64,000 nt of DNA from a bacterium. Lineage in GTDB: Bacteria > Patescibacteriota > Dojkabacteria > B142 > OLB20. Below, one piece after another: positions 9,902 to 60,825 of this stretch. How positions within the stretch are numbered: the first letter of the stretch is position 1; each line of letters opens with the position of its first letter. The stretch spans positions 93,343 to 157,342 of the forward strand of contig JAJTYI010000009.1 in assembly GCA_021463645.1 (NCBI GenBank), given 5' to 3'. The position numbers and the translations under genes are program-made. The notes under the pieces were generated by a model. The model did no database searches, was not told the origin of the DNA, and saw only the letters and a program-made list of their open reading frames with translations.

Positions 9902-9930
9902 AAGGCAATAATTATCAAACAAAAATTAAT

Positions 9931-38080: not shown

Positions 38081-38084
38081 TTTA

Positions 38085-42901: not shown

Positions 42902-43510
42902 TCAGTGACCGCCTAGAAAGCACTTTGACGTATCATGTCTCTTTGCTGTGCAATAATATCTCCCATAAAGAACCAGACTTTGACTTAGAAATCCCCACTT
43001 ATCTCTAGGGAATAATTCCATCAAGTCTTTTTCGATTTTGTCAGGGTTAGAATTATTAGTTAATCCCAATAATCTGGATATTCTAATCACGTGTGTATCA
43101 ACTGCTATCCCTTCATTTTTACCAAAAGCATTATATAGGACTACATTTGCAGTTTTTCTTGCTACTCCAGGGAGTTTTATTAATTCTCGCATTTCATCTG
43201 GTACTTTCCCATCAAATTCTTCAACAATTTTTTTAGCCGTAGCAATTATTTTCTTTGTTTTTTGGTTATAAAAACCTGTAGAAAATATAATCTTAGCAAC
43301 TTCATCTTGACTTGCTTCACTCATCTCTCTGGGGGTAGGGAAGCGTCCAAATAGAACAGGTGTGACTTTATTAACTCTAGCGTCTGTACATTGTGCAGAT
43401 AGAATTGTCGCTACTAATAATTGGAAGGGATCTTTGAAATCAAGCTCAGACTTTGCATCAGGAAATTTTTCCTCTAACTTATCCAATACGCCGTTAATAT
43501 TAATCACCAT
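42902..43510 (-). CDS. nth: Endonuclease III-like HhH-GPD DNA glycosylase, lacking the complete Fe-S cluster loop
   Basis: DPFQLLVATILSAQCTDARVNKVT and the HhH LPGVARKTANVV...DTHV match Nth. The C-terminus ends YYCTAKRHDTSKCFLGGH with only 2 of the 4 cluster Cys. Confidence 0.8.
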   Translation of the reverse strand: MVININGVLDKLEEKFPDAKSELDFKDPFQLLVATILSAQCTDARVNKVTPVLFGRFPTPREMSEASQDEVAKIIFSTGFYNQKTKKIIATAKKIVEEFDGKVPDEMRELIKLPGVARKTANVVLYNAFGKNEGIAVDTHVIRISRLLGLTNNSNPDKIEKDLMELFPRDKWGFLSQSLVLYGRYYCTAKRHDTSKCFLGGH

Positions 43511-46500
43511 ATCTGATAGTAATGGAGTTTAGTGCAGGCGATTGTAATTGATCTGATTCTATCAACAACCTGTATTGTATAAATTGTTTCCCTTGAATTA
43601 CTTTAGGTAATACGTAACCTTCGTTTGTACCGCTAAGAGTAAAGAACGTTCCTCTGGTGCCATCTGGACCATACCATTCTTCGTTTGAGAGGTTGCTAGA
43701 ACTACCCGATCTAATCTGAATCTTTATTTCACCACCATTTTTAGCTTCATCCCATACGATTGAATGATAATATTTTACAGGAGTTCCCATATCTTTTACT
43801 TCTGATAAATATTCCCCATATTTAGCATAACCACTAGGTAATGCTTCACCTTGCATCAAGGTAAGTTCTTCATTTGTGGAATCGGAAGTGATATAGACAT
43901 ACTCAGAACCTACACCGTTCTTCGCGATTTTAATGTCAGTGGCTTTAATATTAGTTCCAATACTATATGAACACTGGAGTCCATCAATAATATTGTATAC
44001 ATGATATTGATTAGTCGCAGAATATCCGGCAGTAGCGAAGTTATTATTATCTAATCCAACTATTCCTAATGGCGACATATTCACAGAATTAATACCAGTA
44101 ACGAGATCAAGTGAATTATCTATTAAAATATCAAATGAGTAGATGTCTGGGATATGTTCTGTTCCATCAGCGGCGACATAAAACCTTGGAAGTATACTTG
44201 TTGTCGTATCCAAATCTAATCCTTTTCCACTTACTACTCCATCAAAACCAGTTAATCCAAATTCTGAGGTGCTAAGTAGAGTAGTACATGCAAGCTGACC
44301 GCATTCAGTTGCTGTTGCACTAATATATTTATGTCCTGGTGGAAGCGTTAAACCAGTAATTACTTTAGGTGTGATACTGAAATTGTATGTCGGACTTCCT
44401 GCTCTACTGATTTCAGTGTGGATATGATTTGCACCTTCTCCAAAACCTGTATCATCACTGGAGGCGCTCGAGTAGAAATCTAGTCGATAATACTTCCCAC
44501 TTTCACTCTGGAAACCTCCATAAACTGATAATGTTGTCCCCACATATGTCGCTTTCGTCAACACAGGGAAATTCTGTAAATTATTTGGACCATCTCCTGC
44601 TAATGTCGAATCAGTATCACCTTTATCATTGAAACTCACTTTGTCACCAGTTGATGTTCTAAGATTGATTCCCATACCGGTGTTGTCATAAATACTATTT
44701 TCAATAATCGTATTATTTTCTGAGCTATTATTACCGACAATTGAGATTCCATCACTAGCATTGTTTCTAATAGTATTTTCTCGAATAAGTGAATTTTTTG
44801 TTCCAGAAAGATAAACGCCATAACTTGAATTTCTTGCAATTATGTTTCCGTCTGCAGGGTTTGTTCCTCCTATGACATTGTTCGTTGCAACTGGAGAGAT
44901 AAATTGTATTCCATATTTATTACCTAGATTGGCATCAGATGAATTCGTACCGATGTAATTGGATTTTATGGAGATTCCTGAGATTGGTGAACCATATCCA
45001 TAAATTCCAGCACCTCTAACTGCTCCAATTATTATGTTGTTCGTTACAGTTGCAGTTGAGAAGGTGGACCCATTACTTGAGAATAATACTACTCCATAAG
45101 TAGAATCCATTAACTTTGCATTTCCAGCTCTATTGATTCCGATGTAGTTATTATCGACTGTAATTCCTGAAATTGCACCAGTCGTAGTACTTAAGGAATA
45201 AATTCCAGAATTCACAGCAACAATCTGATTATAAGATATGTTGAGATTTGAAACCTTAGTAACTTTAATTCCATCGTAATTAGTAACTTGATTTGCGCCA
45301 GTTTTATCCACCCCGATGTAATTAGCCTCAATGACATTGTCATTGCTTCCTGATGTACCTGCGATGTAGTTTATACCACTCGCACCATTACCTGATATTA
45401 CATTACATACACCTGTACAACTGGCAGGCAGACTATTTAAATCTGCATCTCCAATTTCTATGCTTGTTGAATTATCAATTTCAATACCTGCTGTCGTGTT
45501 TCCTCGTGAATACTCACCAGCCTTATTGGTACCAATATAATTTCCTTGAACTACGTTGGTATTCGAAGATTTGATTTGTAAACCAATATAATTACCACTT
45601 ATGATATTACCTTGACCTGCGGCAGAACCTCCGATAGTATTTCCAGTCGAAGTTGATTCTAAAGTAATACCGCTTTCACTATTGCCCACGATGGTAACAC
45701 CATCTTGAGCAAGTCCGATTATATTACATTGAACAGTTCCTCCTGTGCTTGATGTGTAGTTAATCCCCCTAGAGAATCCATGAATCACTAGACCTTTTAC
45801 TATGCCTCCTGTGGTACTGGAGAAAGACAGTCCTGGACTACTAAGGTTAGCACCTGCTAACACGACTCTTAAATCTTTTGTTGTGCAGTCTGAACCAGTT
45901 TGAGTTGTTCCATCAATCTGGAGTGAGTTTGTTATCGTAGGAAGAGCACTCGATAGACTGATGGTATGTGGTCCGGTCCCAGGAATATTAAAGATAATCT
46001 TGTCAGCATTGGTAGTAGAATTTGCTTCTTGTATCGCTGCCCTCAAAGTACATTTACCTGAAGCCGTATAACAATCTAAATCTCCGATATCAGCATCACT
46101 TTCATCTAGTGTTGAATTTACTACATATCTTCTTGCGTCAGGGTCCCCAAAAATTGTAAAATCATCAATCGCACCCATCGCAGGCTCAGTACCAGTATTA
46201 TGTAGATTTCCAATATAAAGAGTAGGGTTGCCAACCATATCACTAAATACAGTTCCTGTTTTTGTTGGTGTAGGTCTTTCGTTGTCCAAAAATAATTTCA
46301 AGTCATCAGGAGTACTTTTTGTTCTATCCCATTCAGCTCTAATCTTTGTCCAGTTTCCCAATTTCCAATATGATGACCAGTTTGCATATGGAATTTGAAT
46401 GCTCTTAGTCGAGGTGGCATGAGTATACTCTAACCAAAGAGGACTTGATCCACTTTGTTTATAAAGTCTGAATTGATTTGAGTCATCAACTCTAACATTG

Positions 46501-49500
46501 AATAAAGTAACATTCTGTGCGACTGACGAAGAAACATCAGGTTTATAATAAAATTCTATAGCTCCCATGTCTTTTTTGAAACTAACTGGGGGTGTTGAGT
46601 AGGGGATAGCCCCAACCGCTGCATATTCTGAACTTGCATCTATTTTCACACTATCTCCAGTAACTCCAGATACAAATGTCAAGTTTTGAGCAGTGACACC
46701 TTTCCCCACAACCGGAGTGGTTAATGCAGCAACATCATTCATTGTTGAGTACCATATAGGATCAGCGGAAGTCCTAGAAACGGGAGTTGGAGATGGAGTA
46801 GGTGTCAAACCTGCCCCGATACCCCAAATCTGAAATTCACTAATATTTCCTCTTGCTATAGCTGCGGCATTCGGGTAATAGTCCGAACTACCAATTGTTA
46901 ACATGATAGCATTTTCGAAATTGTAAGGATTCATAACTTGAACAGTAGTTTTCGTTGGTTCTACTGTTTCCCAACTAGTACCATTATGATAAGTAATAAA
47001 TAACTTAAGTTTTTCTGCTTCCGTGGGAGCGTAATAATCCCATTCAGCTGAAAATTTCATCCATTTATCAATAGTCCAGTAACTGCTATAATTTGTAGCT
47101 GAAATTCGAGTTCTTCTGTTATCGATGACACCAGTTCCACTACTATTACATTGTCCACCAGTACCAATACAACTGGCATCATAACTGAATTCTAAAATAT
47201 TATTATTTGCATTATTCTTTTTTACTAAACTTATGTTATCTGTCGATCTGGTCCTAAGTTTAAATAATGTCATATCATTATTTCTTGTATATGCAACCGC
47301 TGGTTTATACCAAAATTCGGCTCTACCTTGAAATTTGTCATAATCTTGCCCTTGGATATCTATTAGTATATTCGACTGGCTAGCATTAAAAACAGCTGCC
47401 GATCTAGCTTCTGGAAGTCCATCGGTTGCAAAAGTTACATTGTATACTGAAGTTGGTGTAGTGCCTATTACAGGTTGCCAAGCAGCTGTAGGATTTGATA
47501 ACGTCGAATACCATAATATGCTCATAGCAGGTACCGGAGTTGGGGTTGGACTAAGTGCAAGTACAGTTGGGGTAGGCATATTGACAGAGTAACCATATAT
47601 TCTAAAATCATCTATGCGACCTCTTGCAAATGAGTTGAGATAAGTAGGATCCCCAGCTATGTATAATGTAGAAACATCTGTGATTGGAGTAGCAACCGTG
47701 TTTAAATGTGTATGTTCAGGTTCTATAAGTGGTCCATTATTTGTACTCATAAATAGCCGTAGTTCATTATCTTGATCAAGTGCAGTATTATAATAGATAT
47801 CGAAAAAAATCCATTCTCCACCACTCCATGAAAACGCAGTGCTTGGAATTGTCATTAAATTATAATTAGTAGCACCGTGTGCAGTTGCATAATAATGCAA
47901 TTCTAGATTTAAACCTTTTTTCTTAAAAGTGATTCTATTTGTTGAATTCGAATATAATTGAAAATAGTTTCCGTTTTCATTATCTGTTGAAGCAAACTCC
48001 GGATTGAAATGAAAGCTTACTCTGCCACTAGTTTCATTAACCTCTGCATCAGAAACATTTGAAATGATTCTACTACCTGTACTTTTCCAATTGAACTTTA
48101 CAGCCTTATTGCTTGCGCCACCTGGCGAATATGGGGAACCAGCAAGAAAAACATAGCTTCCCGAAATTGTCCCTGCTGTACCTCTCACGGGATTTTGTAT
48201 TGCAGAAACACTATCGATTGTTGAGTACCATATAGGCGTAGGAGTTGCTGTAGGCGCTACACTCGGTGTAGGCGTAATTGTTGGTGTCAAAGTCGGAGAT
48301 GGTGTTGGCGTAATTGTAGGAGTTGGAATCACGGTTGTAGTGAACATTCTGTATTCATCAATACTACCCAATGCACTATAATCTCCATTTTCTGTTCTAT
48401 TTCCTACATATACTCGAAGAGGATTTGGCTCGGATGTAATATTATCTCCAAGAATTTTGAATTCTTGATTTGTATGAGTTGGTTGAACTCCATTTATATA
48501 AATTTTTAGCTGTTCTGCCAAACTCAACGATGGATTGTCGTTCCAGGTTATCCTAAAGAACATCCATTCTCCATCATTCCAATAAGAATCATAATTTGCT
48601 AGGGCTATAGTTTCTTCTCCACCACAAGATGTTTGACAATGGTAAGAAAAAGCGAGAGCATTGCCGTTGGCATTATCTCTTTTATATAGTCGAATCTCTT
48701 CGTTATCATTTTGCCTAATGCTGAATAGATTTATTTCTGCATTATGGTTTGCCTCGTATATCGGCCTATAATAGAATTCAACCGCACCTTCATTTAAAGA
48801 ATAGTGAATTCCTTGAGTTCCTTCGATGTAAAGACTTTTACCTGCACCATCAAAATAAAGAGCACTTTCATATTCTGCAGGACCATCTATAAATGAAGCT
48901 CCCGAGAATACCCCAGGAACATCCCCAATAGCAGGTGTAGTAACTGCTTCCATACTATCAAAAGTTGAATACCAACTAGCTTGTCCTGAATTCTGCCGAA
49001 AAACTGGTGTGGGAGCAGGAGTTCCAACTGGTGTTGCTTGAGGCTGTGCTACATCATGGTAAATCGTGAAGTCGTCTATCCTTCCGTTTGCTTCATTAGT
49101 ACCAGTAGGTGATGAATTTCCTATATAGATAAATGTAGGATTTAAGATAGAAGAAGGGTTAATTGAAGACGAATTTCGAGTCATTGGCAACTCGACTTCA
49201 TCAACAAGGATTAGAAGTTGTTCGTTGATCGGAGCATAAGCATTCCAATGAATAGTGAAATTGACCCAATCATCAGCCGCAAATGCGTAATCAGCTCCTG
49301 AAATTAAAACCTCTGCATCACCACAATATGCACATTTATATAGTAAAGATAAACTGTCATTGGCATCATTGAGCTTTTTAAATTCAATTTTGTTGTTTGC
49401 ATCACCAAATATACTAAAAAAAGTCATTTCCTTATTTGTCGTATGCGCCTCCAGTGGAGAATACATAAATTCTATAGTACCTTTATCTAATTTAACGTCT

Positions 49501-50459: not shown

Positions 50460-53204
50460 TTACAAGAATGCTTCTAATAATAAATTATTCACCCTTGGTG
50501 TCGGAGTTATACCGTTTGTAACGTCCATCACACCGAAGTTACCATCTTCTCCTAGTCCCAATAGATAAAGCTGATTTGAATTTAGTTTCATATCAACTAT
50601 ATTTCTCAATTTCAGTCCACCAATTGTTGATAAGTTCTTAGCACTAACGTAAGTATTTGTAGTAGGATTGAATTGGATTACATAACTGTCTTGAATAGCA
50701 AAACCTCGAGTATCGTTTGCTATGACTACTCCCTGAGTATCATCATTTGAAGCCAAGCCGAAATTGATAATGTTATGTGTGTTTGTATCCAGATTGAAAA
50801 CAACTATATCTTTTGTTGGATTAGAGGTTGACATATACAGTCGATTATTATATTTGTAAATATCGTTCACTCTATATTTCGCATTACCTGCAATTAATGC
50901 TGGATCAGAGGCTTCACCGCCTGCTAAGGTGCTACCTCTCCATCCGTGTTTCCCCTGATAACTAAAATCATAAACTGTTTGATCGACAGAATTCACAACA
51001 TTCATCCTCCAATAACCAATTAAGCCAGCATCGTTTCGATTTATTTCTGTTTGATATGATTTAACTATCTCATTTTGAGATAACGCACGATTGTATATAC
51101 GAACATCATCCATGTCTATCACCGCACCGTTAGTTAATGCTGTGTTATTTCCAAAACGTAGTTGCTGAGTTGTTCCTGTAACTGGTGAGAGACTAGTATA
51201 AGTATCAGTTAAGGGGCTGGCTCCATTAATATACATAGTTCCAGTACCGCCTGATATGACAACCGCAATATGTCTCCAGTTAGAATCAGAAATTGTATTA
51301 TTGTCTTCAATAATTAGATTTTCCGAGCCGAAATGAGTAAATCTCAGTTTATTGGGTATTGTAAATGATAAAAACCAACCAGTAGTTGAACCGTTAGAAA
51401 AATCTAAAATTCTATCAAAAGAATCTTGAGATGTATCATTTGACCTGAACCAAGTCATTATAGTCATATCATTTTGTACATTCCATTTAGAACTATAGTC
51501 AACCGCAACCACATCCCCACCGTCAAATCTAAGCCCACCCGAGCTCGTATTGTTATCCCAACCGACTGTGTCGATTATTGATTCTGTCATGGAAGGAGGA
51601 AAAGCACCATTCGCGAATCTTTCTAAATAGAGGGCTCTTGAATGTTCACCCTCTGTAGTGTTGTGTTGAGCAACATAGATATTGTCAGAGGAAGGCCTGT
51701 ATAGACAATCTTCATGATTAATTACACTTTGCTGACCTGTTAAAATTGCGGATTTATTTGAAAGATAAGTGCTTAGTAATGTTATAGATGTTGGTGATAG
51801 AAGTCTATTATTTGACAAGTTAAGACCTGGAGTAGGAAGCCCATTGATATTACTTAAATTAGCTATATTTGTAGGAATATGACATGTAAGCGTATTATTA
51901 TTCAAATACAATATATTCAAAGCAGTTAATCGTCCTATAGATGGTGGAATTTGGCCATCTAACTGATTAGACGATAAATTTAAAGTTGTTAAAGCTGTGT
52001 TGTTTCCAATGGTCTTTGGAATTACTCCATCCAGTTGATTACTACTCAGATTCAATGTGGTTAAACTAGTCAACCGTCCAATTTGTGGTGGAATTGGCCC
52101 TGTAATAGAATTCCCAGACAGATTCAATGTTGTTAGGCTTGTTAGGTTTCCCAATTCTGTTGGCAATGTTCCAGTGAGATTGTTACCTATTAAACTTATA
52201 GATGTTATGTTTGTTCCTGAACACCCAACACCGTTCCAACCGGAACACGGATTGGCATTTGCTTTCCAACCAGTATTGTTTGTCCAAGAAGTTCCGTTTG
52301 TACTATCGAAAAGTCTTAACAGACTTTCACATTGTGTAATAGTAGTTCCCGTACCAGTACATATCGAAGGGTTGCTGTTGTTTATTACAGGCATTACTGG
52401 TGAAGCAGGGGCGGGCGCGTTTGTCGGTATAGGACCAGTCAGTGAAGGTTCATACATTTCATAATCAATAGCACCACTTGGAGCGCTATTTGTAGCAATA
52501 GCTTGTGTGCTTCCAGAACCTACTGGAAATAAATCGTAGGATTTTGTAGTTATATTATCTGTTATTACACACCAGTCAGAGTTCGCCATACTAGAGGAAG
52601 AAGTAATCTGTACACTATCATTTTCTACTTTTGTATTTGTGAGTACTGGAGGAGGATTAGAGAAAGTGTAATCATCATATTCTGTCCAACTAGTACTTGA
52701 CCAATTCGTCAAAAAATAGTTTTCTGTGAGTTGTTGGGTATTATTGAAAATATCTGTCCAAGATGCAACAACGATAACTTTGATTGTATCAGGGTCGTTT
52801 CCATCACTTGCGGGAACAAGCTCACCTGAATCTCGATCTGCTTTTTTGAAGTATACTTGATATGTCACTCCATTATTTACTTTTGTACCAAAATTTATTT
52901 GAATTTTATTATTGATGACATCAACAACTCTCGAATCTGAACCATCAGGATCTTGATCGAAGTATCTTATCATTTCTGACCATGAGGAACTTTTAATTGA
53001 ATATAAGCTATTTATGGTGTCTTTGATTACCAAGCCTGCTTCAAGTCTTGTTCTGTCGTTTTGTCTAGAACGAAATGCATCTATTGCCAAACCAAAATTT
53101 GCAGTTACTACAATACCGAAGATAGCCAAAGCAAGTAGTAATTCAACTAGGGAGAAACCTTTATATATTTTTTTGTTTATTTTAATTTTTAATTGATTAC
53201 CCAT
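50460..53204 (-). CDS. Large minor pilin: prepilin N-terminus + LRRNT/plant-type LRR domain + LamG domain + C-terminal beta-rich region
   Basis: Class III signal KKIYKG|FSLVELLLALAIFGIVV. LRR N-cap CESLLRLFDSTNGTSWTNNTGW...NPCSGWNGVGC followed by ~5 24-residue LxxLxLSxNxLxGxIPxxIGxLxx repeats (nt ~51795-52337). LamG with LRFDGGD...DDVRIYNRALSQNEI (nt ~51054-51572). Confidence 0.85.
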   Translation of the reverse strand: MGNQLKIKINKKIYKGFSLVELLLALAIFGIVVTANFGLAIDAFRSRQNDRTRLEAGLVIKDTINSLYSIKSSSWSEMIRYFDQDPDGSDSRVVDVINNKIQINFGTKVNNGVTYQVYFKKADRDSGELVPASDGNDPDTIKVIVVASWTDIFNNTQQLTENYFLTNWSSTSWTEYDDYTFSNPPPVLTNTKVENDSVQITSSSSMANSDWCVITDNITTKSYDLFPVGSGSTQAIATNSAPSGAIDYEMYEPSLTGPIPTNAPAPASPVMPVINNSNPSICTGTGTTITQCESLLRLFDSTNGTSWTNNTGWKANANPCSGWNGVGCSGTNITSISLIGNNLTGTLPTELGNLTSLTTLNLSGNSITGPIPPQIGRLTSLTTLNLSSNQLDGVIPKTIGNNTALTTLNLSSNQLDGQIPPSIGRLTALNILYLNNNTLTCHIPTNIANLSNINGLPTPGLNLSNNRLLSPTSITLLSTYLSNKSAILTGQQSVINHEDCLYRPSSDNIYVAQHNTTEGEHSRALYLERFANGAFPPSMTESIIDTVGWDNNTSSGGLRFDGGDVVAVDYSSKWNVQNDMTIMTWFRSNDTSQDSFDRILDFSNGSTTGWFLSFTIPNKLRFTHFGSENLIIEDNNTISDSNWRHIAVVISGGTGTMYINGASPLTDTYTSLSPVTGTTQQLRFGNNTALTNGAVIDMDDVRIYNRALSQNEIVKSYQTEINRNDAGLIGYWRMNVVNSVDQTVYDFSYQGKHGWRGSTLAGGEASDPALIAGNAKYRVNDIYKYNNRLYMSTSNPTKDIVVFNLDTNTHNIINFGLASNDDTQGVVIANDTRGFAIQDSYVIQFNPTTNTYVSAKNLSTIGGLKLRNIVDMKLNSNQLYLLGLGEDGNFGVMDVTNGITPTPRVNNLLLEAFL

Positions 53205-53581
53205 TCAGTTGCTGTAATATCTGCTATTGTCTTTTGAGTATTATAACTAGATGACCGATATTGACTTTCAACGTTTATAACCCGATTATTACCGCTAGTT
53301 TTTGCAACTGTTGCAGAACATTCACGTTCTGCGTCTATCACAACGGAGAAACTTTCTGTCGTAGTATTTGCATAGGCTGGGTTATTTCTACTAATTTTAT
53401 AGTATGCTTCTTCCAAACATGTAAAAGCGGTATTCTGAGCATAGATTTGATTTGTATAGCTTGTCGTGGAATTTGCAAAGTCCAACGCTTGGAAAATTAA
53501 AACAATTGCAGTGAAGACAAATAATGCCGAAAATACCAAAACAGTGGTTAATGCAACGTTCCCTCTAAGGTTTTCCATCAA
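53189..53581 (-). CDS. PilX-N-like pilus assembly/minor pilin protein
   Basis: N-terminus LRGNVALTTVLVFSALFVFTAIVL resembles the PilX N-terminal domain (RGxxLxxxLxxL). 4-nt overlap with the upstream pilin gene. Confidence 0.5.
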   Translation of the reverse strand: MMENLRGNVALTTVLVFSALFVFTAIVLIFQALDFANSTTSYTNQIYAQNTAFTCLEEAYYKISRNNPAYANTTTESFSVVIDAERECSATVAKTSGNNRVINVESQYRSSSYNTQKTIADITATEWVIN

Positions 53582-54081
53582 TCAAAAATATATGAATTTG
53601 TGAATTCGTTACTAATGGAGTTATCAGCTCTAGATCTGATTCCCACAGTAATCTCCACACCTATATTAGTATCGCTATTATCTAGAATTTCTTCAAGTAA
53701 AAATTTGGTAACTTCAACATCGTTCCTTGTGATTTGTTTGGTTATAGCACCATCGAAAAACTGTAGCCTTGCGTCACTTGTGGCAAAATCAGATACAGTA
53801 TAGTTAATATTAGTAGGACCTGTTAAATACAAGGCTCCATTATTATTATTAAAAATAGTTGATCCCCCAATAGACGTTGTTCTTTCAAAACTATCTTCAA
53901 AATGTTGTGATAATAAAATTATCGCTCGATCAATTTTTAATGCTTCTCCTGAAAGTTGGTTATTATCTTCAACAAAAAAGAAAAAATTAATCATAACAAC
54001 AAAAAACATCCCAAATATTGCAAGATACACGAGAACCTCAATTAACGTCATTCCTTTTAGTTTCTTTCTGTCGAAAATCAT
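53578..54081 (-). CDS. Minor (pseudo)pilin with prepilin-type N-terminal cleavage/methylation motif
   Basis: KKLKG|MTLIEVLVYLAIFGMFF. Confidence 0.8.
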   Translation of the reverse strand: MIFDRKKLKGMTLIEVLVYLAIFGMFFVVMINFFFFVEDNNQLSGEALKIDRAIILLSQHFEDSFERTTSIGGSTIFNNNNGALYLTGPTNINYTVSDFATSDARLQFFDGAITKQITRNDVEVTKFLLEEILDNSDTNIGVEITVGIRSRADNSISNEFTNSYIFD

Positions 54082-55226
54082 TAGTTTATATAATAATTAA
54101 TTAAACCTTCTGAGTTTATTTCTACAAAAACTACGGAACTTCCATTAACAATATTAAAAGAAGTCGTAGAATTTGGTTTGAAACTACCTTCATCAAAATT
54201 AATAATTTTTTTTGCTGGCGAAATCACATTGGATTTGACACCATTAGAAAAAGGAAAATCAGTTTTTGTAAATTTTCGTTGATTATAATTATACAAGTTG
54301 GTGACATCTGTTGATGTTAAGTTTAGGTTATAGATTCTAAGCTCATCGATATCACCAGACCAATTTCTGATATTACTTTGTGCACCACCAAAATTCAAGG
54401 AACCTATTCGAACGGGGAAAGTAGAGGTACCAGTTAAACCCCCTTTTGATGCTGAACCTACTTGGGCTCCATTTAAATAAAGATACATCATTGAACCATC
54501 CCAAGTCGCAACTGCATGGTACCATGTATTAATGGCTAATACCCCCGATGTTACACCTACATAACTTGCTCCTCCTAAATAGTATTCCAATCGGTCTGTA
54601 CTTGTGTTTAATCTCAAGATAAAAGTTGTCCCAGACGAATTTGCGGACTCTTTGGCCACTATGTACCTTAAGCTGTCCTCACCCCCAACAAGAGTGTTTG
54701 TGCGGAACCATACAGATACAGCCAAACTGTTCTCATTATTTAAATTACTAAGAGGTACAGTATCAACCTCAACACCATTGTTGTCTTGGAAAGCAATATA
54801 ATCTCCAATCCCATCAAATTTTGCACTATTACCGAATCCTTCACTAGAAAGTGTGGTGTCTAATTTAGGAGTACCATGGTTACCATTTCCTGAAGCATCA
54901 TATATTTCGTCGTTTACTCCATTCCATAAGTTCTCGTTAAACTTCCAATAACCTACTAATCCATCTGTAGCAAGATCCTCGTCAACCGAAGTAATGAGGG
55001 AGTAACCTGTTTCTCTCACCTCTACACTATAAGCCTTCCCATTCTTAAACGAATTTGCGTTCTGTTGGGCATTGAATATCGCACTACTAACTTCTGCGGC
55101 TGCATCATACGCCCTGTTGTCCGTGATTTGCCTAATACTATATGGAACGGCTAGAACAGATACAAAGCCTGTGATAGCTATCACTATCAGCATCTCAAGT
55201 AATGTAAAGCCTTTCATTGAAAGCAT
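54081..55226 (-). CDS. Minor pilin with C-terminal LamG (ConA-like lectin) domain
   Basis: MLSMKG|FTLLEMLIVIAITGFV prepilin motif. LamG_3 hallmarks GLVGYWKFNE, DASGNGNHGT, AKFDGIGDY, IDELRIYNLNLTSTDV. Confidence 0.85.
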   Translation of the reverse strand: MLSMKGFTLLEMLIVIAITGFVSVLAVPYSIRQITDNRAYDAAAEVSSAIFNAQQNANSFKNGKAYSVEVRETGYSLITSVDEDLATDGLVGYWKFNENLWNGVNDEIYDASGNGNHGTPKLDTTLSSEGFGNSAKFDGIGDYIAFQDNNGVEVDTVPLSNLNNENSLAVSVWFRTNTLVGGEDSLRYIVAKESANSSGTTFILRLNTSTDRLEYYLGGASYVGVTSGVLAINTWYHAVATWDGSMMYLYLNGAQVGSASKGGLTGTSTFPVRIGSLNFGGAQSNIRNWSGDIDELRIYNLNLTSTDVTNLYNYNQRKFTKTDFPFSNGVKSNVISPAKKIINFDEGSFKPNSTTSFNIVNGSSVVFVEINSEGLINYYIN

Positions 55227-56311
55227 TAAAGTTGGTTAATATTTCCTGTTAATTGATAAATTGGACCCACGATTGAAATTGCTAGAACTGCAACCATTAA
55301 TCCAATAAAAATCAATAATAAAGGTTCGATGATTGTACTCATATTATTTGTCATTTCTTCAACCTCTTCTGCATAGAAATCATACAAATATAGTAGGTTG
55401 TCTTCTAAAGTTGCTGTTTTTTCACCTACACTTATCATTTTTACATATAGTGGGGGGAACTGCTTCGGATATCTTCCCAAAACTTCAGCAACGTTCTTAC
55501 CTCTTTGCACTTCTTGTCTTAATGTTTCAAAGATTTGGGCATAAACTACATTACTTGTTGTTGTTGAAGTAATTTTCAATGCATCAGCCAAAGGGATACC
55601 ACTTTCTAGAAGAATTCCCAGGGTCCTGGAAAATGTAGCTAATATATTTTTCACTACTAACTCTTTAATTATTGGGATTTTCAACATCAACTTATCCTTG
55701 AAGTCTGTCCCTGTTTTTGTCTTGAAGAATCGATGACCAACATAAACTATCACAGCCAAAGCGATTGCCAAAAATATAATGTTTGTTCGTATAAAATTCG
55801 AAAAGTTCAATACGAACATTGTAAGGGCAGGGGGATCTTCAAACGCATTAAACAATCCTTCCATCTTAGGTAAGATGAAATAAATCACTCCTAACATTTC
55901 AAAAGATGTCAGGAGCAAGATGATGACTGGATAGACCATAGCACCTTTTACTTTTCTCAAGAGTTCGTAATTTTTCTTCAAGAAAACAGCTAAGAAATTT
56001 AGGTTTTTCTCGAGCGTTCCCCCTTGCTCTCCAACTTCAATAATCGAAATAATTACTTCAGAAAATATATTTGGATATTTCCTCATAGCTGAAGATGTAT
56101 TCTTACCGGTTCGAACATCTTTCAAGATTTCCCCATATGCTTCACGAAGTTTTGGATCTGGTGATTGCTGACTGATTACTTCGAGAGTATCTTCTAGTGA
56201 AAGTCCCGACTCTAACATTACCGCAAGATGCCTAATCGATAAAGCTAAATCGACCTGAGAAACTTTATGAAACAAATATATCGTCTTGTCGTTGGATAAT
56301 TTTATTTCCAT
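55226..56311 (-). CDS. pilC: Type IV pilus / type II secretion platform protein (PilC/GspF family)
   Basis: Two T2SSF repeats, three TM segments, C-terminal GPIYQL. Confidence 0.9.
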   Translation of the reverse strand: MEIKLSNDKTIYLFHKVSQVDLALSIRHLAVMLESGLSLEDTLEVISQQSPDPKLREAYGEILKDVRTGKNTSSAMRKYPNIFSEVIISIIEVGEQGGTLEKNLNFLAVFLKKNYELLRKVKGAMVYPVIILLLTSFEMLGVIYFILPKMEGLFNAFEDPPALTMFVLNFSNFIRTNIIFLAIALAVIVYVGHRFFKTKTGTDFKDKLMLKIPIIKELVVKNILATFSRTLGILLESGIPLADALKITSTTTSNVVYAQIFETLRQEVQRGKNVAEVLGRYPKQFPPLYVKMISVGEKTATLEDNLLYLYDFYAEEVEEMTNNMSTIIEPLLLIFIGLMVAVLAISIVGPIYQLTGNINQL

Positions 56312-56339
56312 TTAATTTTGATAATTTTAATTAACAAAT

Positions 56340-57848
56340 TTATTGCTTAAGTGCAGTGACTCTCATGATTTCTTCTAAACTCGTAACTCCTGTTTTGACT
56401 GCGTTTACTCCATCTTCAACAATTAACTTCATTCCATTTTCTCTCGCAACTTTGAACACGTCATCAATATTTTCTCTTTCAGAAATCATCCTTCGTATTT
56501 TCTCTGTCACCTCTAGAATTTCAAAGAGACCGAATCTTCCCTGGAAACCACTATCGCCACATGTTTCACAACCAGCCTCTTGATAAACAACATCTCCGAC
56601 TTTGAAATGCATTGCGATATCTTGCCTGATTTTGTTTATCCGTGTTAATTCTTCTTGATCGATGGTGTATTGTTTTTTACATTTTTCACACAATTTCCTA
56701 GCCAATCTCTGGGCAATAACAATATTTAGAGTTGAGGCAACAAGGAAAGGCTCAACATCCATATCAATCAACCTAGGAATTGTTGAAATTGAATCATTTG
56801 TATGCAAGGAGGACAAAACCAAGTGCCCCGTAAGAGCAGCATTGGTGGCTATATTTGCAGTTTCCGCGTCTCGAATCTCTCCAATCATTATAATATCTGG
56901 ATCTTGTCTCAAAATAGAACGAAGTCCCGAGGCAAAAGTCAGGTTAGCTTTATTATTTACTTGTATATGATTTACTCCATCAATACTATACTCCACAGGA
57001 TCCTCAACAGTTGTGATATTTACATCCCTTGAGTTTAATTTCTGCAAAATTGCATATAGACTGGTGGTTTTACCAGAACCAGTAGGACCGACTGCTAGAA
57101 TCATTCCGTAAGGACGCTTATAACTTTTCTCAACCACAAGTTGGTCAGCATCCGACATACCCAACGAACTAAAAGTGAAGGATTTACCTTCTTTGATTAA
57201 CAACCTCATTACTACTTTCTCCCCAGCGCTAGTAGGAAGAATGGAGATACGAGTATCGATTTTCTTATTTTCAATAATAAATCTGATTCTACCGTCCTGA
57301 GGCGCGAAATGCTCGTCAGTACGCATCTTCGCAGCGACTTTAATTCTGAACAATAAGGATTCTTGAATATCTTTGCCGACTTGTAATACATCTTTAAGCA
57401 AACCATCAATTCTAAATCTTACGACAACAACTTCTTCGTGTGGCTCAATATGAATATCAGATGTTTTAGCCTTTATGGCTTGCTTAACTATGTAATTGAT
57501 AAGTTCAACAATATTTAACTCGCTGCCATCTTTCGGTTTCTCGATAGTCTGTATCTTTTTCGCTGGTGGTTGGCTTTCAGGCCCAGGATCAGCATCTTTT
57601 TTTTGTTCAGATTGGTTTACATCTCCAGTCTGCGTTGATACTGCTGGATTTTGAGGTGCGACCGAACCCGGCGTTATCGGATTTGCAGGAGTCTGTGCAA
57701 CAGGATTCGTTGTTTGTGAAGGAGTAACAGAGTTATTTTGATTTTGAACTGTAGATGTGGGAGATGGAGTAGAGGACCCCATAGATGTGGGCACTTGGCC
57801 TGTAGTCGTGTTTACAGTCTGAGAATTTTGGGCAGTTGATCCGGACAT
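56340..57848 (-). CDS. pilB: Type IV pilus assembly ATPase (PilB/GspE family) with a ~100-aa low-complexity N-terminal extension
   Basis: Walker A GPTGSGKTT, Asp/His boxes, tetracysteine CEKCKK...CETCGDSG. The N-terminus is S/T/P/Q/N-rich. Confidence 0.92.
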   Translation of the reverse strand: MSGSTAQNSQTVNTTTGQVPTSMGSSTPSPTSTVQNQNNSVTPSQTTNPVAQTPANPITPGSVAPQNPAVSTQTGDVNQSEQKKDADPGPESQPPAKKIQTIEKPKDGSELNIVELINYIVKQAIKAKTSDIHIEPHEEVVVVRFRIDGLLKDVLQVGKDIQESLLFRIKVAAKMRTDEHFAPQDGRIRFIIENKKIDTRISILPTSAGEKVVMRLLIKEGKSFTFSSLGMSDADQLVVEKSYKRPYGMILAVGPTGSGKTTSLYAILQKLNSRDVNITTVEDPVEYSIDGVNHIQVNNKANLTFASGLRSILRQDPDIIMIGEIRDAETANIATNAALTGHLVLSSLHTNDSISTIPRLIDMDVEPFLVASTLNIVIAQRLARKLCEKCKKQYTIDQEELTRINKIRQDIAMHFKVGDVVYQEAGCETCGDSGFQGRFGLFEILEVTEKIRRMISERENIDDVFKVARENGMKLIVEDGVNAVKTGVTSLEEIMRVTALKQ

Positions 57849-57970
57849 TAAAAATAACTAATACTAACAAATATTAAACCAAAGTTTGGAGATGGTATCA
57901 AGTGAATACTTTAATCTTACGGAAAATTTATATTTCCCCTATACACCAAACCTTAGTTTCTTATACAAAA

Positions 57971-58381
57971 TTATCTCGTTAATGTTATCCTTTCTCCATC
58001 CAAATTTGGAGCATATATAGTCAACTGTCCTGCAGGAGAGTTGTAACAAATATTGTAATACGGGGAGTCTCCACCTTTTGGATCAGTTGGATATTCAGCC
58101 ATATATCCATTCTCTAATAACTTGGGAGCGATATCTAACGATGGAAAGGGTACGCCATTCGTAAAATCAGGCTTTCCGCCTGCGCATACAGGGAGGGGCA
58201 TTCCACCAGAATAGGTCAATGAATCCGATACACCCTCTTCTTGTATCATATACATATTAATTGAAGACATGATTTGAGACATTTCTGATGTCCTTTCGGA
58301 ATTTCTTGCCGCTTCAAAATTTGAAGAGGGGTTTAAAGTAAATACGAAGAAGGAAAAGATTAATGTTAATAGTCCAAACAT
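57971..58381 (-). CDS. Pilin paralog lacking the prepilin leader / G-FTLIE cleavage motif
   Basis: LNPSSNFEAARNSERTSEMSQIMSSINMYM aligns with LNPTASFAKARDSERQTEMAQIFTAINRYV of the major pilin, and YPTDPKGG aligns with MPTDPTAG. The N-terminus is just MFGLLTLIFSFFVFT, and no upstream in-frame extension supplies the motif. Confidence 0.65.
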   Translation of the reverse strand: MFGLLTLIFSFFVFTLNPSSNFEAARNSERTSEMSQIMSSINMYMIQEEGVSDSLTYSGGMPLPVCAGGKPDFTNGVPFPSLDIAPKLLENGYMAEYPTDPKGGDSPYYNICYNSPAGQLTIYAPNLDGERITLTR

Positions 58382-58430
58382 GCTGATAAATATTAATATA
58401 ATATAACTTATCGTTTTTATTAATTTAAAG

Positions 58431-58460
58431 CAAAAAAAGAGGAGCCGAAGCTCCTCTTTC
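58431..58460 (-). terminator. Intrinsic terminator after the major pilin gene
   Basis: On the minus strand: AGAGGAGC-ttcg-GCTCCTCT followed by a 7-nt U-run. Confidence 0.8.
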
Positions 58461-58476
58461 TAATTTTCACTTTTAG

Positions 58477-58920
58477 TTATCTAACCATCGATATTCTAGC
58501 AGTCGAAGTCTCCTTGGCAGGAGCAATAAGTCTCATTGGTCCTGCGGTTCCAGATACATAACAAACCTTATATTGTGCACCTGCTGTAGGATCTGTAGGC
58601 ATTGCCTGTAAGTATCCACCAGTTGTAAGGGTTGTTGCAAATGCTGCTGGGAAATCAGGATTTCCTGTCCATTCAGGAGCTGTTCCCAAACATACATCTA
58701 TTCCCGTGATTCCATCTGCTGAGTTACCATCCACTACATATCTGTTTATTGCTGTAAATATCTGAGCCATTTCTGTTTGTCTTTCTGAATCCCTCGCCTT
58801 TGCGAAACTGGCGGTTGGATTTAATGCAATAATCGTAACGGCTGCCAAAATAGCAATCAAACCGATTACAATCAAAATTTCAATTAATGTAAAACCTTTT
58901 AGGTCTGTAACTTTTCTCAT
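58477..58920 (-). CDS. pilA: Major type IV pilin
   Basis: MRKVTDLKG|FTLIEILIVIGLIAILAAV class III signal with Glu5. 147 aa with its own promoter and terminator. First gene of the cluster. Confidence 0.9.
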   Translation of the reverse strand: MRKVTDLKGFTLIEILIVIGLIAILAAVTIIALNPTASFAKARDSERQTEMAQIFTAINRYVVDGNSADGITGIDVCLGTAPEWTGNPDFPAAFATTLTTGGYLQAMPTDPTAGAQYKVCYVSGTAGPMRLIAPAKETSTARISMVR

Positions 58921-58962
58921 TTAAATAATAAATAAAAATTAAATAAAAACTTACTTAAGAAT

Positions 58963-58991
58963 ATGTTAGGAACATATCAATCACATGTCAA
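58963..58991 (-). promoter_or_regulatory. Putative sigma-70-type promoter of the major pilin gene
   Basis: On the minus strand, TTGACA (58991-58986), a 17-nt spacer, then TAACAT (58968-58963). Confidence 0.4.
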
Positions 58992-59058
58992 GGATTTTTT
59001 ATAATTTGTTAATTAATCATATCTATCTTAAAATCATAACTACATTTATTAATGCGCT

Positions 59059-60825
59059 ATGCCAAACATTTTAAAAATAATTAAACTCTCCAAACCCCTC
59101 CACGGTGTGATTCTTAGTATGTCTTTCCTAATTGTCTTTGGTGTATTTCTTGATTTACTCACACCTTTTGTCTCAAAGTTCATAATTGACGAAATTGTTT
59201 TGAAAATACAGGGCGAAGTAGCAGATACCGATAAAATTATCTTTTTGATTGTATTTGGTTTCGTACTTTCTCTCACGAAAAACGCATTAGACGCTTATAG
59301 TAGTAGAAAAGGTGATCACTTAGCCGGGGAACTTGAAAAATTCTTAACAAACAAATTCTATTATCAGATATTAACTTTGCCTCAAACATACTTTGATTCG
59401 GAATTGTCTGGGAAAATTATCAACCAACTAGGTAGGGGTATTAAGTCCATCAAAAATTTCTTTAACACAGCAACAAATTTCATAATTCCCTCGATTCTGC
59501 AAAGCATTTTTATAATAATCACTCTCGCTTATTATAGTGTTCCAATCGCTCTACTTACCGCAGGTATTTTCCCAATTTATCTTTACTTAACTTCCATATC
59601 AGCAAAGCGATGGGGTAAAGAAGAAGAGAAGAAAAATAAAATTGAAGATATCACTCGTGGAAGGATTCAGGAAGTAATCACAAATATAAAGGTTGTAAAA
59701 AGTTTTACCAATGAATTACCTGAATCTATTTTTGTTTCCGAGAAAATTAATAAAATTAATAAAATATATGCAAGACAAAGTAAGAATTATCACCTAATTG
59801 ATTTCGCTAGAAACTCGGGAGTGACATTTTTGATGATTGCTATATATTCAATAATCTTTTATATGACTTTTGAGGGTAGATTTAGCATCGGAGTAATGGT
59901 TTTGATTATCCAACTACTTGATCAAGCCAGAAGACCACTCTACGCAATGTCATATATCCTCACTCAAGTTCAAACCGCCGAAGCTGGCTCGAAAGAATTT
60001 ATAGAAATCCTAGATTTACCTCAAGGTGAGGAACTAAAATCAAAGTCATCATACCAAAAAGTAAAAAATCCTCAATTAACATTTGAAAATGTGAGTTTCC
60101 ACTACAAAGATTCGGAAGATGTCTTAAAATCCATTTCAGCCAAACTTGGTCCGGACGAGAAAGTCGCCTTAGTGGGACATAGTGGAGCAGGGAAATCGAC
60201 ACTTGTAAACTTAATATTACGTTTCTACGAACCTCAAAGCGGTGAAATCAAATTAAATGGAGAATTATACAATGAACTTGATCAGCAATTTATACGAAAT
60301 AATGTTGCTTTGGTATTTCAAGAAAACGAACTATTTTCGACAACCATTAAAGAAAATGTGGCATACGGAATAAAAGCAACTAATGAGGAAGTTACAAAAG
60401 CTCTGAAGCAGGCAAATGCTTGGGACTTTGTTGAGAAACTTCCGAAGAAACTTAATGCAGAAGTAGGGGAGAGAGGAGTGAAATTATCAGGAGGTCAGAA
60501 GCAGAGAATACAAATTGCACGCGCAATCCTCAAAAATGCGCCAATTTTGATTCTCGATGAAGCGACTAGTAATCTTGACTCAAAATCTGAAGAAGCCGTT
60601 CAAGATGCACTCGAATATTTAATGAAAGATAAACTCGTGATCATAATCGCTCACAGATTTTCTACAATTCAAAATGTAGACAAAATTATCGTTCTACACA
60701 AAGGTAAAATCGCCGATATGGGAACTCCTGGTGAGCTAGCAAGAAAGGATGGAGTCTATTCAGAATTATTACAATATCAAATCGAAGGGAATAAGAAGCT
60801 GTTAAAGAAATACGAGCTGTATTAA
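59059..60825 (+). CDS. ABC exporter, fused permease/ATPase (MsbA/multidrug type)
   Basis: Six-TM ABC_membrane domain, Walker A GHSGAGKST, signature LSGGQKQR, Walker B ILILDEATS. Confidence 0.9.
   Translation: MPNILKIIKLSKPLHGVILSMSFLIVFGVFLDLLTPFVSKFIIDEIVLKIQGEVADTDKIIFLIVFGFVLSLTKNALDAYSSRKGDHLAGELEKFLTNKFYYQILTLPQTYFDSELSGKIINQLGRGIKSIKNFFNTATNFIIPSILQSIFIIITLAYYSVPIALLTAGIFPIYLYLTSISAKRWGKEEEKKNKIEDITRGRIQEVITNIKVVKSFTNELPESIFVSEKINKINKIYARQSKNYHLIDFARNSGVTFLMIAIYSIIFYMTFEGRFSIGVMVLIIQLLDQARRPLYAMSYILTQVQTAEAGSKEFIEILDLPQGEELKSKSSYQKVKNPQLTFENVSFHYKDSEDVLKSISAKLGPDEKVALVGHSGAGKSTLVNLILRFYEPQSGEIKLNGELYNELDQQFIRNNVALVFQENELFSTTIKENVAYGIKATNEEVTKALKQANAWDFVEKLPKKLNAEVGERGVKLSGGQKQRIQIARAILKNAPILILDEATSNLDSKSEEAVQDALEYLMKDKLVIIIAHRFSTIQNVDKIIVLHKGKIADMGTPGELARKDGVYSELLQYQIEGNKKLLKKYELY

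Follow-up and report, generated by a model that had tools for sequence, protein, structure and literature searches.

Does a type IV pilus operon whose accessory subunits carry lectin-type domains encode a filament for the recognition of host surfaces, and does the giant surface protein encoded at its end belong to that filament? Both questions are raised by a locus of Candidatus Dojkabacteria (CPR/Patescibacteria), which lies within the 64,000 nucleotides of chromosomal DNA analysed here (the window). Host recognition and attachment by episymbionts of this group are largely unknown, and the foremost candidates for this role are type IV pili (T4P) that carry lectin-like subunits at the tip. We consider it probable, at roughly 0.75, that the block is a chromosomal type IV pilus assembly operon with lectin and LRR modules at the filament tip, and that the giant protein is an adhesin of the cell body.

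Gene layout and assembly machinery

All pilus genes and the giant gene lie on the reverse strand, with the open reading frames and coordinates given by the initial annotation. The major pilin (147 aa, 58477-58920) matches N_methyl (3.3e-5), TIGR02532 and pilins in the PDB, and begins with the class III signal peptide MRKVTDLKG/FTLIE (Gly-1, Phe+1, Glu+5). The promoter and terminator previously assigned to it were recovered as a sigma-70-like site, TTGACA-17-TAACAT (58963-58991, 10/12 consensus matches), and an intrinsic terminator 3' of the gene (58434-58461; GC-rich 12-bp stem followed by a T-run). It should be noted that the promoter is a consensus match only, since promoter-like sites overall are not more frequent than in shuffled sequences. 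This highly variable pilin (58% amino acid identity to its counterpart at the related locus L007, versus 91% for PilB) would thus be transcribed from its own promoter-like site and stop at the strong terminator. A pilin paralog follows (136 aa, 57971-58381; alignment with pilins) that lacks the first 17 residues, comprising the leader and FTLIEILIV, and keeps the globular domain and both cysteines. It had been placed inside the tightly spaced block and instead sits 122 nt upstream of pilB, outside it. It was judged to be neither a pseudogene in decay nor a silent cassette, because the identical truncation is kept in three lineages (it is found in L007 and L027 as well) and because pN against L007 (0.23) is well below pS (0.75), indicating that the gene is under selection.

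The machinery genes downstream encode a PilB/GspE-type extension ATPase (502 aa, 56340-57848; T2SSE 2.9e-126) and a PilC/GspF platform protein (361 aa, 55226-56311; T2SSF 3.1e-58, two domains in two stretches). The ATPase has a Walker A motif (GPTGSGKT), a tetracysteine motif (CxxC...CxxC) and a low-complexity N-terminal 100 aa; it scores 511 bits with the GspE and 488 bits with the PilB models of NCBIfam, compared with just 172 bits for the PilT family, and matches GspE/PilB structures in the PDB at 1e-109 to 1e-102. The platform protein scores 244 bits with GspF and 234 bits with PilC. Four pilin-like genes follow, and N_methyl/TIGR02532 signatures in the 147-, 381-, 167- and 914-aa proteins identify these as type IV filament pilins.

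As first reported, no PilM/N/O/P/Q, PilT or prepilin peptidase was detected by Pfam among the other open reading frames of at least 100 aa in the window; likewise, these proteins, with peptidase A24 standing for PilD, were not found in the Pfam-annotated syntenic neighbours of relatives (10-kb flanks). The absence of pilD, pilM/N/O and pilT therefore describes the locus, that is, the window and the relatives' 10-kb flanks, and not the organism. Since prepilin peptidase, PilM/N/O and PilT are missing from the window, the locus does not by itself demonstrate a complete pilus machine; PilD and any PilM/N/O or PilT would have to be encoded elsewhere in the genome. The lack of a secretin had been presented as a trait of this operon, but PilQ is missing throughout CPR bacteria, consistent with a non-Gram-negative envelope (PMC6744442), and its absence is normal here; CPR cells without an outer membrane would need no secretin.

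The description of the block as translationally coupled, with overlaps or gaps of 0-16 nt, holds for most junctions. From nth-giant up to pilC-pilB the gaps are -11, 0, -16, -4, -1, -1 and +28 nt, the last exceeding the described range. The tight block also runs on beyond the giant gene into nth (endonuclease III family, 42902-43510; HhH-GPD in syntenic orthologs), which has the same orientation, an unrelated function and an 11-nt overlap with the giant's stop codon. Close spacing is therefore no sign of a common function; an argument from spacing for co-transcription of giant and pilins would wrongly take in nth. Gaps of 16 nt or less occur in 15 of the 29 other same-strand gene pairs in the window, and because about half of these pairs are equally tight, small gaps were rejected as proof of a functional operon.

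Minor pilins and their binding modules

The claim that minor pilins carry LamG and LRR modules is solidly supported for two subunits, which are modular pilins in the sense of Raynaud et al. 2021. The 381-aa minor pilin (54081-55226; Gly-1, Phe+1, Glu+5) combines N_methyl and a weakly GspH/ComGE-like N-terminus (NCBIfam) with Laminin_G_3 (1.6e-23, 84.0 bits). Alignment with orthologs places the LamG module at residues ~82-318 (54273-54983), inserted between the N-terminal ~80 and the C-terminal ~60 residues. Orthologs at L002, L003 and L009 are 148-161 aa long and have no LamG segment, and the one at L008 is a LamG version, 38% identical. The 914-aa minor pilin (50460-53204) consists of an N_methyl pilin module, an LRR block at residues ~330-470 (51795-52217; LRR_1 2.2e-16, with LRR_14, LRR_8 and LRR_4), a Laminin_G_3 module at residues 562-713 (51066-51521; 5.5e-21, 75.7 bits) and a C-terminal ~200 aa with no assigned domain. 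Both Laminin_G_3 scores exceed the Pfam gathering threshold of 27.6 bits. At least 12 full-length orthologs of the 914-aa pilin were retained (P0042-P0052, P0056) from a search otherwise swamped by unrelated LRR proteins.

Between these two genes lie those of a 167-aa minor pilin (KG/MTLIE, 53578-54081; N_methyl 3.7e-6, weak GspI-like match in NCBIfam), whose L009 ortholog carries an insertion of ~310 aa, and of a 130-aa pilin-like protein (LRG/NVALT, 53189-53581) recognized by its sequence motif and ortholog alignment, with no match in Pfam or NCBIfam. The latter has two conserved cysteines, and in all five orthologs Gly-1 is kept and Glu5 is missing. GspK likewise lacks Glu5, and the 130-aa protein may be a GspK/PilX-type subunit. 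Three of the four pilin-like genes thus encode canonical Gly-1/Glu+5 signal peptides. Purifying selection acts on the pilins (dN/dS 0.06-0.32).

If type IV filament biology as established elsewhere applies, these four subunits would assemble into a priming complex of the HIJK type, from which the filament is nucleated and which comes to lie at its tip; the LamG and LRR modules would therefore be displayed there, potentially as adhesins for glycans or proteins of the host cell surface. The mapping onto H, I, J and K draws on gene count as well as on N-terminal matches that are weak and below family cut-offs, which counts against it. LamG and LRR are, moreover, generic binding folds, and binding-site residues are not conserved across the ConA-like superfamily. 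Close relatives differ in which minor pilins have gained or lost a binding module, while their machinery genes hardly vary. Such gain and loss fits what diversifying pressure on adhesive tip modules should produce, and variable modules on constant machinery are the pattern expected of host-range-determining adhesins. Streptococcus sanguinis PilC and Saccharibacteria PilX1/PilX2 make it plausible, by analogy, that these lectin-type modular pilins recognise glycans or hosts, and the idea is not new.

The giant surface protein and its family

The 2319-aa giant (43500-50459, ortholog comparison) comprises, from N- to C-terminus, a receiver-like domain, a membrane anchor, five LamG-like repeats, a CSLREA beta-helix and an all-beta C-terminus; the first two had been overlooked by the initial annotation. 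Residues 1-130 (50070-50459) match the receiver (REC) family PF00072 at 6.4e-4 and 20.3 bits, below its gathering score of 30.2 bits. A profile of the N-terminal family matches Spo0F, PhoP and CheY at 8e-8, PF00072 matches are precomputed for several orthologs and paralogs, and D9, D59 and K108 are invariant. Judged from sequence, the domain probably adopts a receiver fold, but its competence for phosphorylation is doubtful: DN replaces DD at the acidic pair and a valine stands where many orthologs have threonine, so that it may not be phosphorylatable. Hydropathy and alignment predict a membrane anchor at residues 212-236 (49752-49826), and the Arg/Lys-rich loop preceding it suggests an N-in/C-out topology by the positive-inside rule. 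The giant would thus have type II membrane topology, with the receiver-like domain in the cytoplasm and a single anchor, followed by the repeats, the beta-helix and an all-beta tip.

The five repeats (residues 253-1447, 46119-49703; Pfam, AF2) are homologous to each other and joined by Pro/Thr-rich linkers. Scanned singly with Laminin_G_3, repeats 1-3 match (8.6e-5, 2.4e-6 and 9.4e-4) and repeats 4 and 5 do not; repeat 2 (28.2 bits) passes the threshold of 27.6, and repeats 1 and 3 score 23.2 and 19.8. Across eight giant orthologs, Laminin_G_3 is found in 20 of 40 repeat instances at E<=0.01, and no other family recurs. A profile of the 40 repeats gave no match to PDB sequences at E<=1; fold comparison alone worked, the AF2 model of repeat 2 (pLDDT 91.3) matching ConA-like lectin jelly rolls. 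Membership of the ConA-like/LamG superfamily is therefore supported, and membership of Laminin_G_3 is borderline. The repeat profile does not match the LamG modules of the pilins, and by sequence the repeats are a separate subfamily; a profile-profile comparison of the two by hhalign gave a probability of 2.9%, from alignments that are too shallow. The seven LamG copies initially counted in the operon thus stand at superfamily level, and at family level resolve into two canonical and five divergent copies.

The repeats are followed by a CSLREA cap and right-handed beta-helix (residues 1445-1946, 44622-46127; TIGR04214 4.2e-7, Beta_helix 2.9e-8, NosD 9.2e-8) and an all-beta region (residues 1947-2319, 43503-44621). 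The AF2 model of the C-terminal 375 aa (pLDDT 75.8) has three beta subdomains and matches nothing in the PDB convincingly (TM 0.25 or less), propellers included. Pfam likewise gave no match to the PilY1 C-terminal beta-propeller (IPR008707) in the giant or the 914-aa pilin, and no class III signal peptide was found in the giant.

Fifteen full-length orthologs (44-96% identity) are named CSLREA or right-handed beta-helix repeat proteins by NCBI and JGI. A word-indexed search with the N-terminal 250 aa returned two fragments, and an exhaustive profile search was used instead. The N-terminal module heads ~176 clusters (50% identity) of mostly giant proteins, with several copies per genome, always at residues 1-~250 and mostly in proteins of 1000-4258 aa. 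The giant would accordingly be one of a family of giant surface proteins, specific to this clade, that have the N-terminal module in common. Paralogs occur at at least 11 loci without pilus genes (L004-L006, L024, L028-L030, L032, L034/35, L041, L043), and among the groups with this module only the giant's own orthologous group lies behind pilus genes. The suggestion that the giant is an accessory pilus subunit was not upheld: it has no class III signal peptide, and its receiver and anchor are common to paralogs at pilus-free loci. It is a membrane-anchored surface protein and not a pilus subunit. No description of a family headed by a receiver-like cytoplasmic domain was found in literature titles and abstracts, and this family is the more original by-product of the analysis and may deserve its own study.

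The large genes are, as predicted, co-conserved with pilB and pilC in every clade relative examined, with the same gene order (L002, L003, L007, L008, L009, L026 and L027), and at all nine loci of the clade, down to 44% identity of the giant, a gap of 0-1 nt separates the large pilin gene from the start of the giant gene. This co-conservation is confounded: collinearity is preserved to the same degree for the neighbouring housekeeping genes (ABC exporter, nth, RNase J), and the coupling of nth is just as tight. Most likely, the giant is an adhesin of the cell body; it would be expressed together with the pilus genes and may cooperate with the pilus.

Alternative readings and known systems

Close functional ties between giant and pilus are asserted by a reading in which the giant is a true pilus partner, either as the membrane-anchored equivalent of PilY1 in a monoderm or as an adhesin for docking, with the receiver coupling adhesion to the machinery. 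In diderm operons pilY1 follows the minor pilin genes, and the giant holds the same place at every locus of the clade; the LamG theme is common to giant and pilins, and stand-alone REC genes adjoin pilB in L012. Set against this are the missing pilin signal peptide and beta-propeller, the N-terminal module common to paralogs at pilus-free loci, the equally collinear flanks with an nth overlap as tight, and the separate subfamily of the repeats, and we regard such a partnership as unlikely. Identity with PilY1 itself was rejected on its defining feature, the absent propeller. Somewhat less probable still is the bolder proposal of an undescribed, clade-restricted class of receiver-anchored adhesins under cis control that act with the pilus as a PilY1 analogue. 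If it were true, surface adhesins of 1000-4000 aa would have their state controlled in cis by a cytoplasmic receiver domain. The lectin-tipped pilus would be the first to touch a host cell, after which the giant LamG/beta-helix protein would lock the cells together; the giant behind the minor pilins would in that case correspond functionally to PilY1, in a monoderm cell and with inside-out control built in.

The filament might instead be a competence (Com-type) pilus serving chiefly DNA uptake, with the lectin and LRR modules secondary. The order of ATPase, platform and small pilins resembles comGA-GG, pilT and pilMNO are missing from the locus, there are weak ComGD/GE/GF-like N-terminal matches, and CPR bacteria are thought to depend on DNA and nucleotide uptake, with pili linked to competence (PMC6744442). 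However, the equivalog scores fall under their cut-offs (ComGA 247.4 versus 300 bits, ComGB 155.6 versus 240 bits) and below those for GspE/PilB and GspF/PilC, the operon core does not include the major pilin, and lectin and LRR folds, the kinds grafted here, are not known as DNA-binding modules. DNA uptake and adhesion are, besides, not mutually exclusive, and a chiefly Com-type function appears improbable. A type II secretion-like pseudopilus exporting the giant or other cargo is far more remote. Among NCBIfam models, those of GspE, GspF and GspG/H/I score highest, yet all stay below equivalog cut-offs; the giant has its own N-terminal membrane anchor, and the modular lectin pilins point to adhesion. 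This reading was rejected on defining features, as neither the secretin GspD nor GspC/L/M was found by Pfam among open reading frames of at least 100 aa in the window, and CPR bacteria have no outer membrane (PMC6744442). An adhesive, lectin/LRR-tipped type IV pilus with the giant as a cell-body adhesin remains the preferred reading.

Known systems resemble this locus in part. The large non-pilin gene directly after the minor pilins recalls the PilY1/PilC adhesin of diderm T4aP, and variable N-terminal binding modules are a further feature to set alongside those of the giant; in contrast to PilY1, the giant is anchored by its own N-terminus, has a cytoplasmic receiver-like domain and no IPR008707 propeller, and its paralogs are not pilus-linked. 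Its CSLREA cap and Beta_helix/NosD repeats are those of CSLREA/right-handed beta-helix surface proteins (TIGR04214, PF13229), whereas the receiver-like domain, anchor and five LamG-like repeats before the helix fall outside that description. Four pilin-like genes in a row after machinery genes, one without Glu5 (as in GspK) and one much larger and modular, recall the GspH-I-J-K, PilH-I-J-K and FimU-PilV-W-X sets, with weak GspH-like and GspI-like matches that are confined to the N-terminal helix and below family cut-offs. Unlike in GspK, the subunit without Glu5 is the smallest (130 aa) and the bulky one keeps Glu5, the reverse arrangement.

The S. sanguinis T4P is likewise monoderm-type and secretin-free, with binding modules grafted onto minor pilins at an expected tip position: PilB (vWA) and PilC (ConA-like lectin, LamG superfamily) form a tip complex with PilA, within which the PilC lectin module binds glycans, and pilin plus PF13385 is the commonest modular-pilin architecture, with 229 proteins (PMC8179133, PMC9934059). 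The Dojkabacteria locus differs in that the LamG of the 381-aa pilin is inserted inside the pilin fold instead of appended, the 914-aa pilin joins LRR and LamG C-terminally (an LRR-only pilin occurs once in that survey), there are four minor pilins instead of three, and pilT, pilD and pilMNO are absent from the locus; sequence similarity is limited to the N-terminal helix and generic fold. Within CPR, the T4P-1 and T4P-2 of Nanosynbacter lyticus TM7x also combine small major pilins with elaborate minor pilins and show fast pilin divergence, and in the part of the account drawn on here (PMC11623550), lectin-like minor pilins of Saccharibacteria mediate host binding, PilX1 and PilX2 having jelly-roll or propeller modules that resemble lectins. 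According to the same part of that account, the TM7x loci include PilM/N/O, PilT and PilD, PilX1/PilX2 have no predicted PilD signal peptides, in contrast to the canonical ones of the 381-aa and 914-aa pilins, and no giant receiver-anchored protein is noted. The lectin/LRR-tipped design is thus already known in CPR and the current picture of such pili is unchanged; to it this locus adds a well-resolved Dojkabacteria example of a probable lectin-tipped pilus.

Layout and conservation of the pilus locus

Reading of open reading frames (ORFs) in the window reveals a single co-directional minus-strand gene series at 42.9-59.0 kb. From its upstream end, the series encodes the 147-aa major pilin (58477-58920; N_methyl), a 136-aa pilin paralog (57971-58381), PilB (56340-57848; T2SSE, Pfam 2.9e-126), PilC (55226-56311; T2SSF, 3.1e-58), four minor-pilin-like proteins of 381 aa (54081-55226; Laminin_G_3, 1.6e-23), 167 aa (53578-54081), 130 aa (53189-53581) and 914 aa (50460-53204; Laminin_G_3, 5.5e-21, along with several LRR families), a giant surface protein of 2319 aa (43500-50459), and the endonuclease III family protein Nth (42902-43510). 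Pfam places N_methyl in four of the pilins. The major pilin gene is preceded by a TTGACA-17-TAACAT site and followed by a terminator with a 12-bp stem. Neither Pfam searches of all other window ORFs of at least 100 aa nor the Pfam annotation of syntenic neighbours gave any PilM/N/O/P/Q, PilT or prepilin peptidase. The only part of PilB recognised by Pfam is the T2SSE core (residues 112-496); in residues 1-100 (57549-57848, minus strand) a Gln/Thr/Ser/Pro-rich low-complexity stretch replaces the usual N-terminal GspE/PilB domains.

The genes, domains and missing machinery listed in the initial annotation are thus as described, but the block is less tight than stated. Intergenic gaps, from nth upwards, are -11, 0, -16, -4, -1, -1, +28, +122 and +95 nt. 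The pilC-pilB gap is therefore 28 nt, and the paralog, previously counted inside the block, lies outside it, 122 nt from pilB. Nor does the tight series end at the giant, as had been proposed; it extends into the unrelated DNA-repair gene nth, whose start overlaps the giant stop codon by 11 nt, with an identical overlap in the same-clade locus L002. Spacing of the translational-coupling type thus joins unrelated genes in this genome, and of the remaining same-strand pairs in the window, half are spaced just as closely.

The PilB relatives in GTDB genomes come from Dojkabacteria MAGs (L007 and L008) and from MAGs of the same clade. Across seven same-clade pilus loci (L002, L003, L007, L008, L009, L026, and L027) one order is kept: a divergent ABC exporter, major pilin, PilB, PilC, minor pilins 1 and 2, the 130-aa protein, the large LRR/LamG pilin, the giant, nth, and RNase J. 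The large genes are therefore co-conserved with pilB and pilC, as the initial annotation had supposed, and we regard the block as a real, well-conserved Dojkabacteria type IV pilus operon with lectin- and LRR-bearing, putatively tip-located pilins. A JGI contig (3300009868; L001) compared with window positions 43001-59200 is 100% identical over the 4366 nt that run from pilB up to where the 167-aa pilin gene starts, then 93% identical after a 58-nt gap and 75% further along; the pattern reflects either strain mosaicism or a chimeric assembly.

Other features of the window lie outside the operon. A five-gene carotenoid-type cluster (35727-41150, minus strand) between HisRS and RNase J encodes a phytoene/squalene synthase, two CrtI-like amine oxidases, a Caroten_synth protein, and a UbiA prenyltransferase. 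Because L002 and L003 have nothing at the corresponding position, the cluster appears to be an insertion specific to this lineage; genes for pigment synthesis are not known to be common in CPR genomes. Together with a DNA photolyase gene (17299-18645, minus strand; PF00875, 2.8e-33), the cluster hints at a light-exposed habitat. A glmS ribozyme (16697-16869, minus strand; Rfam RF00234, 47.4 bits) is located directly upstream of glmS (14878-16662).

Pilin modules and the history of the operon

Three minor pilins carry the Gly-1/Glu+5 pair. In the 130-aa protein, the conserved N-terminus reads (R/K)G|N-V-A-L-T and is devoid of Glu5 in all five orthologs, recalling the Glu5-less member of the GspH-I-J-K-type priming set; GspH-like and GspI-like matches among the minor pilins are weak and below cut-offs. 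The LamG module of the 381-aa pilin (residues ~82-318) is an insertion, as its orthologs in L002, L003 and L009 are only 148-161 aa long and align to its two ends, while the L008 ortholog is a LamG version with merely 38% identity. Likewise, the 167-aa minor pilin has a 477-aa ortholog in L009 (7322-8755) with a different insertion of ~310 aa, which starts with a long Pro/Thr linker and matches no Pfam family, and the large pilin of L003 bears an extra segment labelled Toxin_R_bind_N in a precomputed annotation table. The minor pilins of this clade thus gain, lose, and exchange binding modules, whereas PilB and PilC remain nearly constant (73-95% identical).

Between the window (50460-57848) and L007, synonymous divergence reaches 1.2-1.3 in pilB and pilC but lies at 0.29-0.69 in the four genes for minor pilins, and the major pilin shows 58% amino acid identity against 91% for PilB. 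These far lower minor pilin values, along with the divergent major pilin, suggest a mosaic history, with recombination and cassette exchange inside the operon.

Missing from the 136-aa paralog are precisely the leader and the 9 residues that begin the mature protein, and it cannot be processed by prepilin peptidase. That it is debris is ruled out by the presence of the same truncated form in L007 (9459-9869) and L027 (2094-2504), making three lineages, and by a pN of 0.23 well below a pS of 0.75, which indicates purifying selection. The paralog is thus a maintained gene.

The giant and its relatives

The giant contains exactly five repeats of ~230 aa (residues 253-478, 490-717, 738-965, 977-1222, and 1230-1447) connected by Pro/Thr-rich linkers. 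Scanned singly against Laminin_G_3, repeats 1, 2 and 3 match at 8.6e-5, 2.4e-6 and 9.4e-4, and repeats 4 and 5 give no match. Among 40 repeat instances from eight giant orthologs, 20 match this family (best 1.9e-8) and no other family recurs. For repeat 2, an AF2 model derived from an alignment of ortholog repeats (pLDDT 91.3) matches the lectin-like jelly-roll subdomain of the clostridial neurotoxin binding domain, sialidase CBM40 modules, and the thrombospondin N-terminal domain (E about 1e-7, TM 0.53-0.63). On the basis of the ortholog matches and this predicted fold, the repeats are assigned to the ConA-like/LamG superfamily. The repeat profile does not match the pilins and hhalign of the repeats against the pilin LamG modules is weak, so the repeats form a separate subfamily. 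The seven LamG copies of the initial annotation accordingly comprise two pilin modules recognised by Laminin_G_3 and five giant repeats that belong at superfamily level.

Residues 1-130 of the giant are receiver-like (PF00072, 6.4e-4, below cut-off). An N-terminal profile of 247 positions aligns with Spo0F, PhoP, and CheY at 8e-8, and the alignment includes the Lys, the Asp pair, and the phospho-acceptor Asp (IIVDTTLPKYSG); in the window giant itself, the acidic pair reads DN rather than DD, and Val takes the place of Thr. Beyond this domain, an amphipathic hydrophobic segment leads into a loop rich in Arg and Lys and then a hydrophobic helix (212-236). By the positive-inside rule, this helix would be an N-in/C-out anchor, and the Pro/Thr linkers would fit an extracellular stalk. 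Past the repeats, the chain continues with a CSLREA cap (TIGR04214, 4.2e-7), a right-handed beta-helix, and 375 final residues that are all-beta and yield no fold match when the AF2 model is compared with known structures.

Fifteen full-length orthologs of the giant (44-96% identity) include one named by NCBI as a Candidatus Dojkabacteria protein. Searched against 1.84 billion representatives, the N-terminal profile recovers 176 clusters (E<=1e-30); the match invariably covers residues 1-~250, and most of the proteins are 1000-4258 aa long. Near the giant paralogs in L004, L005, L006, L024, L028, L029, L030, L032, L034/35, L041, and L043 there is neither a PilB or PilC gene nor any pilin gene. 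Several of these loci contain two or three receiver-anchored giants in tandem (L004 10001-20188, L024 616-13498, and L029 5713-20557), adjoining cysS in L004 and L024. These tandem copies, and the fact that L024 and L002 come from the same sample, indicate that there are probably several family members per genome. A run of five large genes elsewhere in the window (1146-11817, minus strand; 508-917 aa) likely encodes surface proteins, with Beta_helix/NosD, pectate-lyase-like, and FG-GAP repeat domains; two of the five have no Pfam match, and the receiver-anchor N-terminus is absent from all five.

Two readings of the giant can be weighed. It could be a functional part of the pilus, and its start does lie 0-1 nt past the large pilin in each of the seven same-clade loci. 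Position alone is no proof of such a link, since the housekeeping flanks are as collinear in relatives as the pilus genes and tight spacing is common in this genome; the giant also has neither a pilin signal peptide nor a propeller of PilY1, the tip adhesin of diderm pili. Judging from the distribution of the N-terminal profile and the paralog loci devoid of pilus genes, the giant belongs to a family of receiver-anchored surface proteins specific to this clade, and a single orthologous group of this family has a fixed position at the operon's 3' end. We therefore consider a functional link between giant and pilus unlikely.

Comparison with known pilus systems

The lack of a secretin, initially named as a feature of the operon, is the default for CPR bacteria, which generally have type IV pilus genes but no PilQ, consistent with a non-Gram-negative envelope (PMC6744442). 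Modular pilins are likewise widespread, with >1200 proteins in 264 architectures; a pilin with PF13385 is the commonest of these (229 proteins), and LRR is joined to a pilin in a single case (PMC8179133 and its Dataset S1). In S. sanguinis, a ConA-like lectin module of PilC binds glycans within a tip complex (PMC9934059), and PilX1 and PilX2, two minor pilins of Saccharibacteria that resemble lectins, have a part in host binding (PMC11623550). Other CPR lineages (L012, L017, L018, and L020) also have pilB-pilC followed by pilin-like proteins of ~970-1400 aa. In L012, a more distant Patescibacteria MAG, these are 1400 aa and at least 1346 aa long, and two stand-alone receiver-domain genes (3127-3992; PF00072, 3.5e-16 and 5.8e-24) lie directly upstream of pilB. 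A lectin-type pilus for glycan or host recognition, as initially proposed, would thus be a reasonable reading, but the concept is already established. What goes beyond known examples is the intra-fold LamG insertion in one pilin, the rare LRR-LamG pilin, and the receiver-anchored giant as a neighbour of pilus genes.
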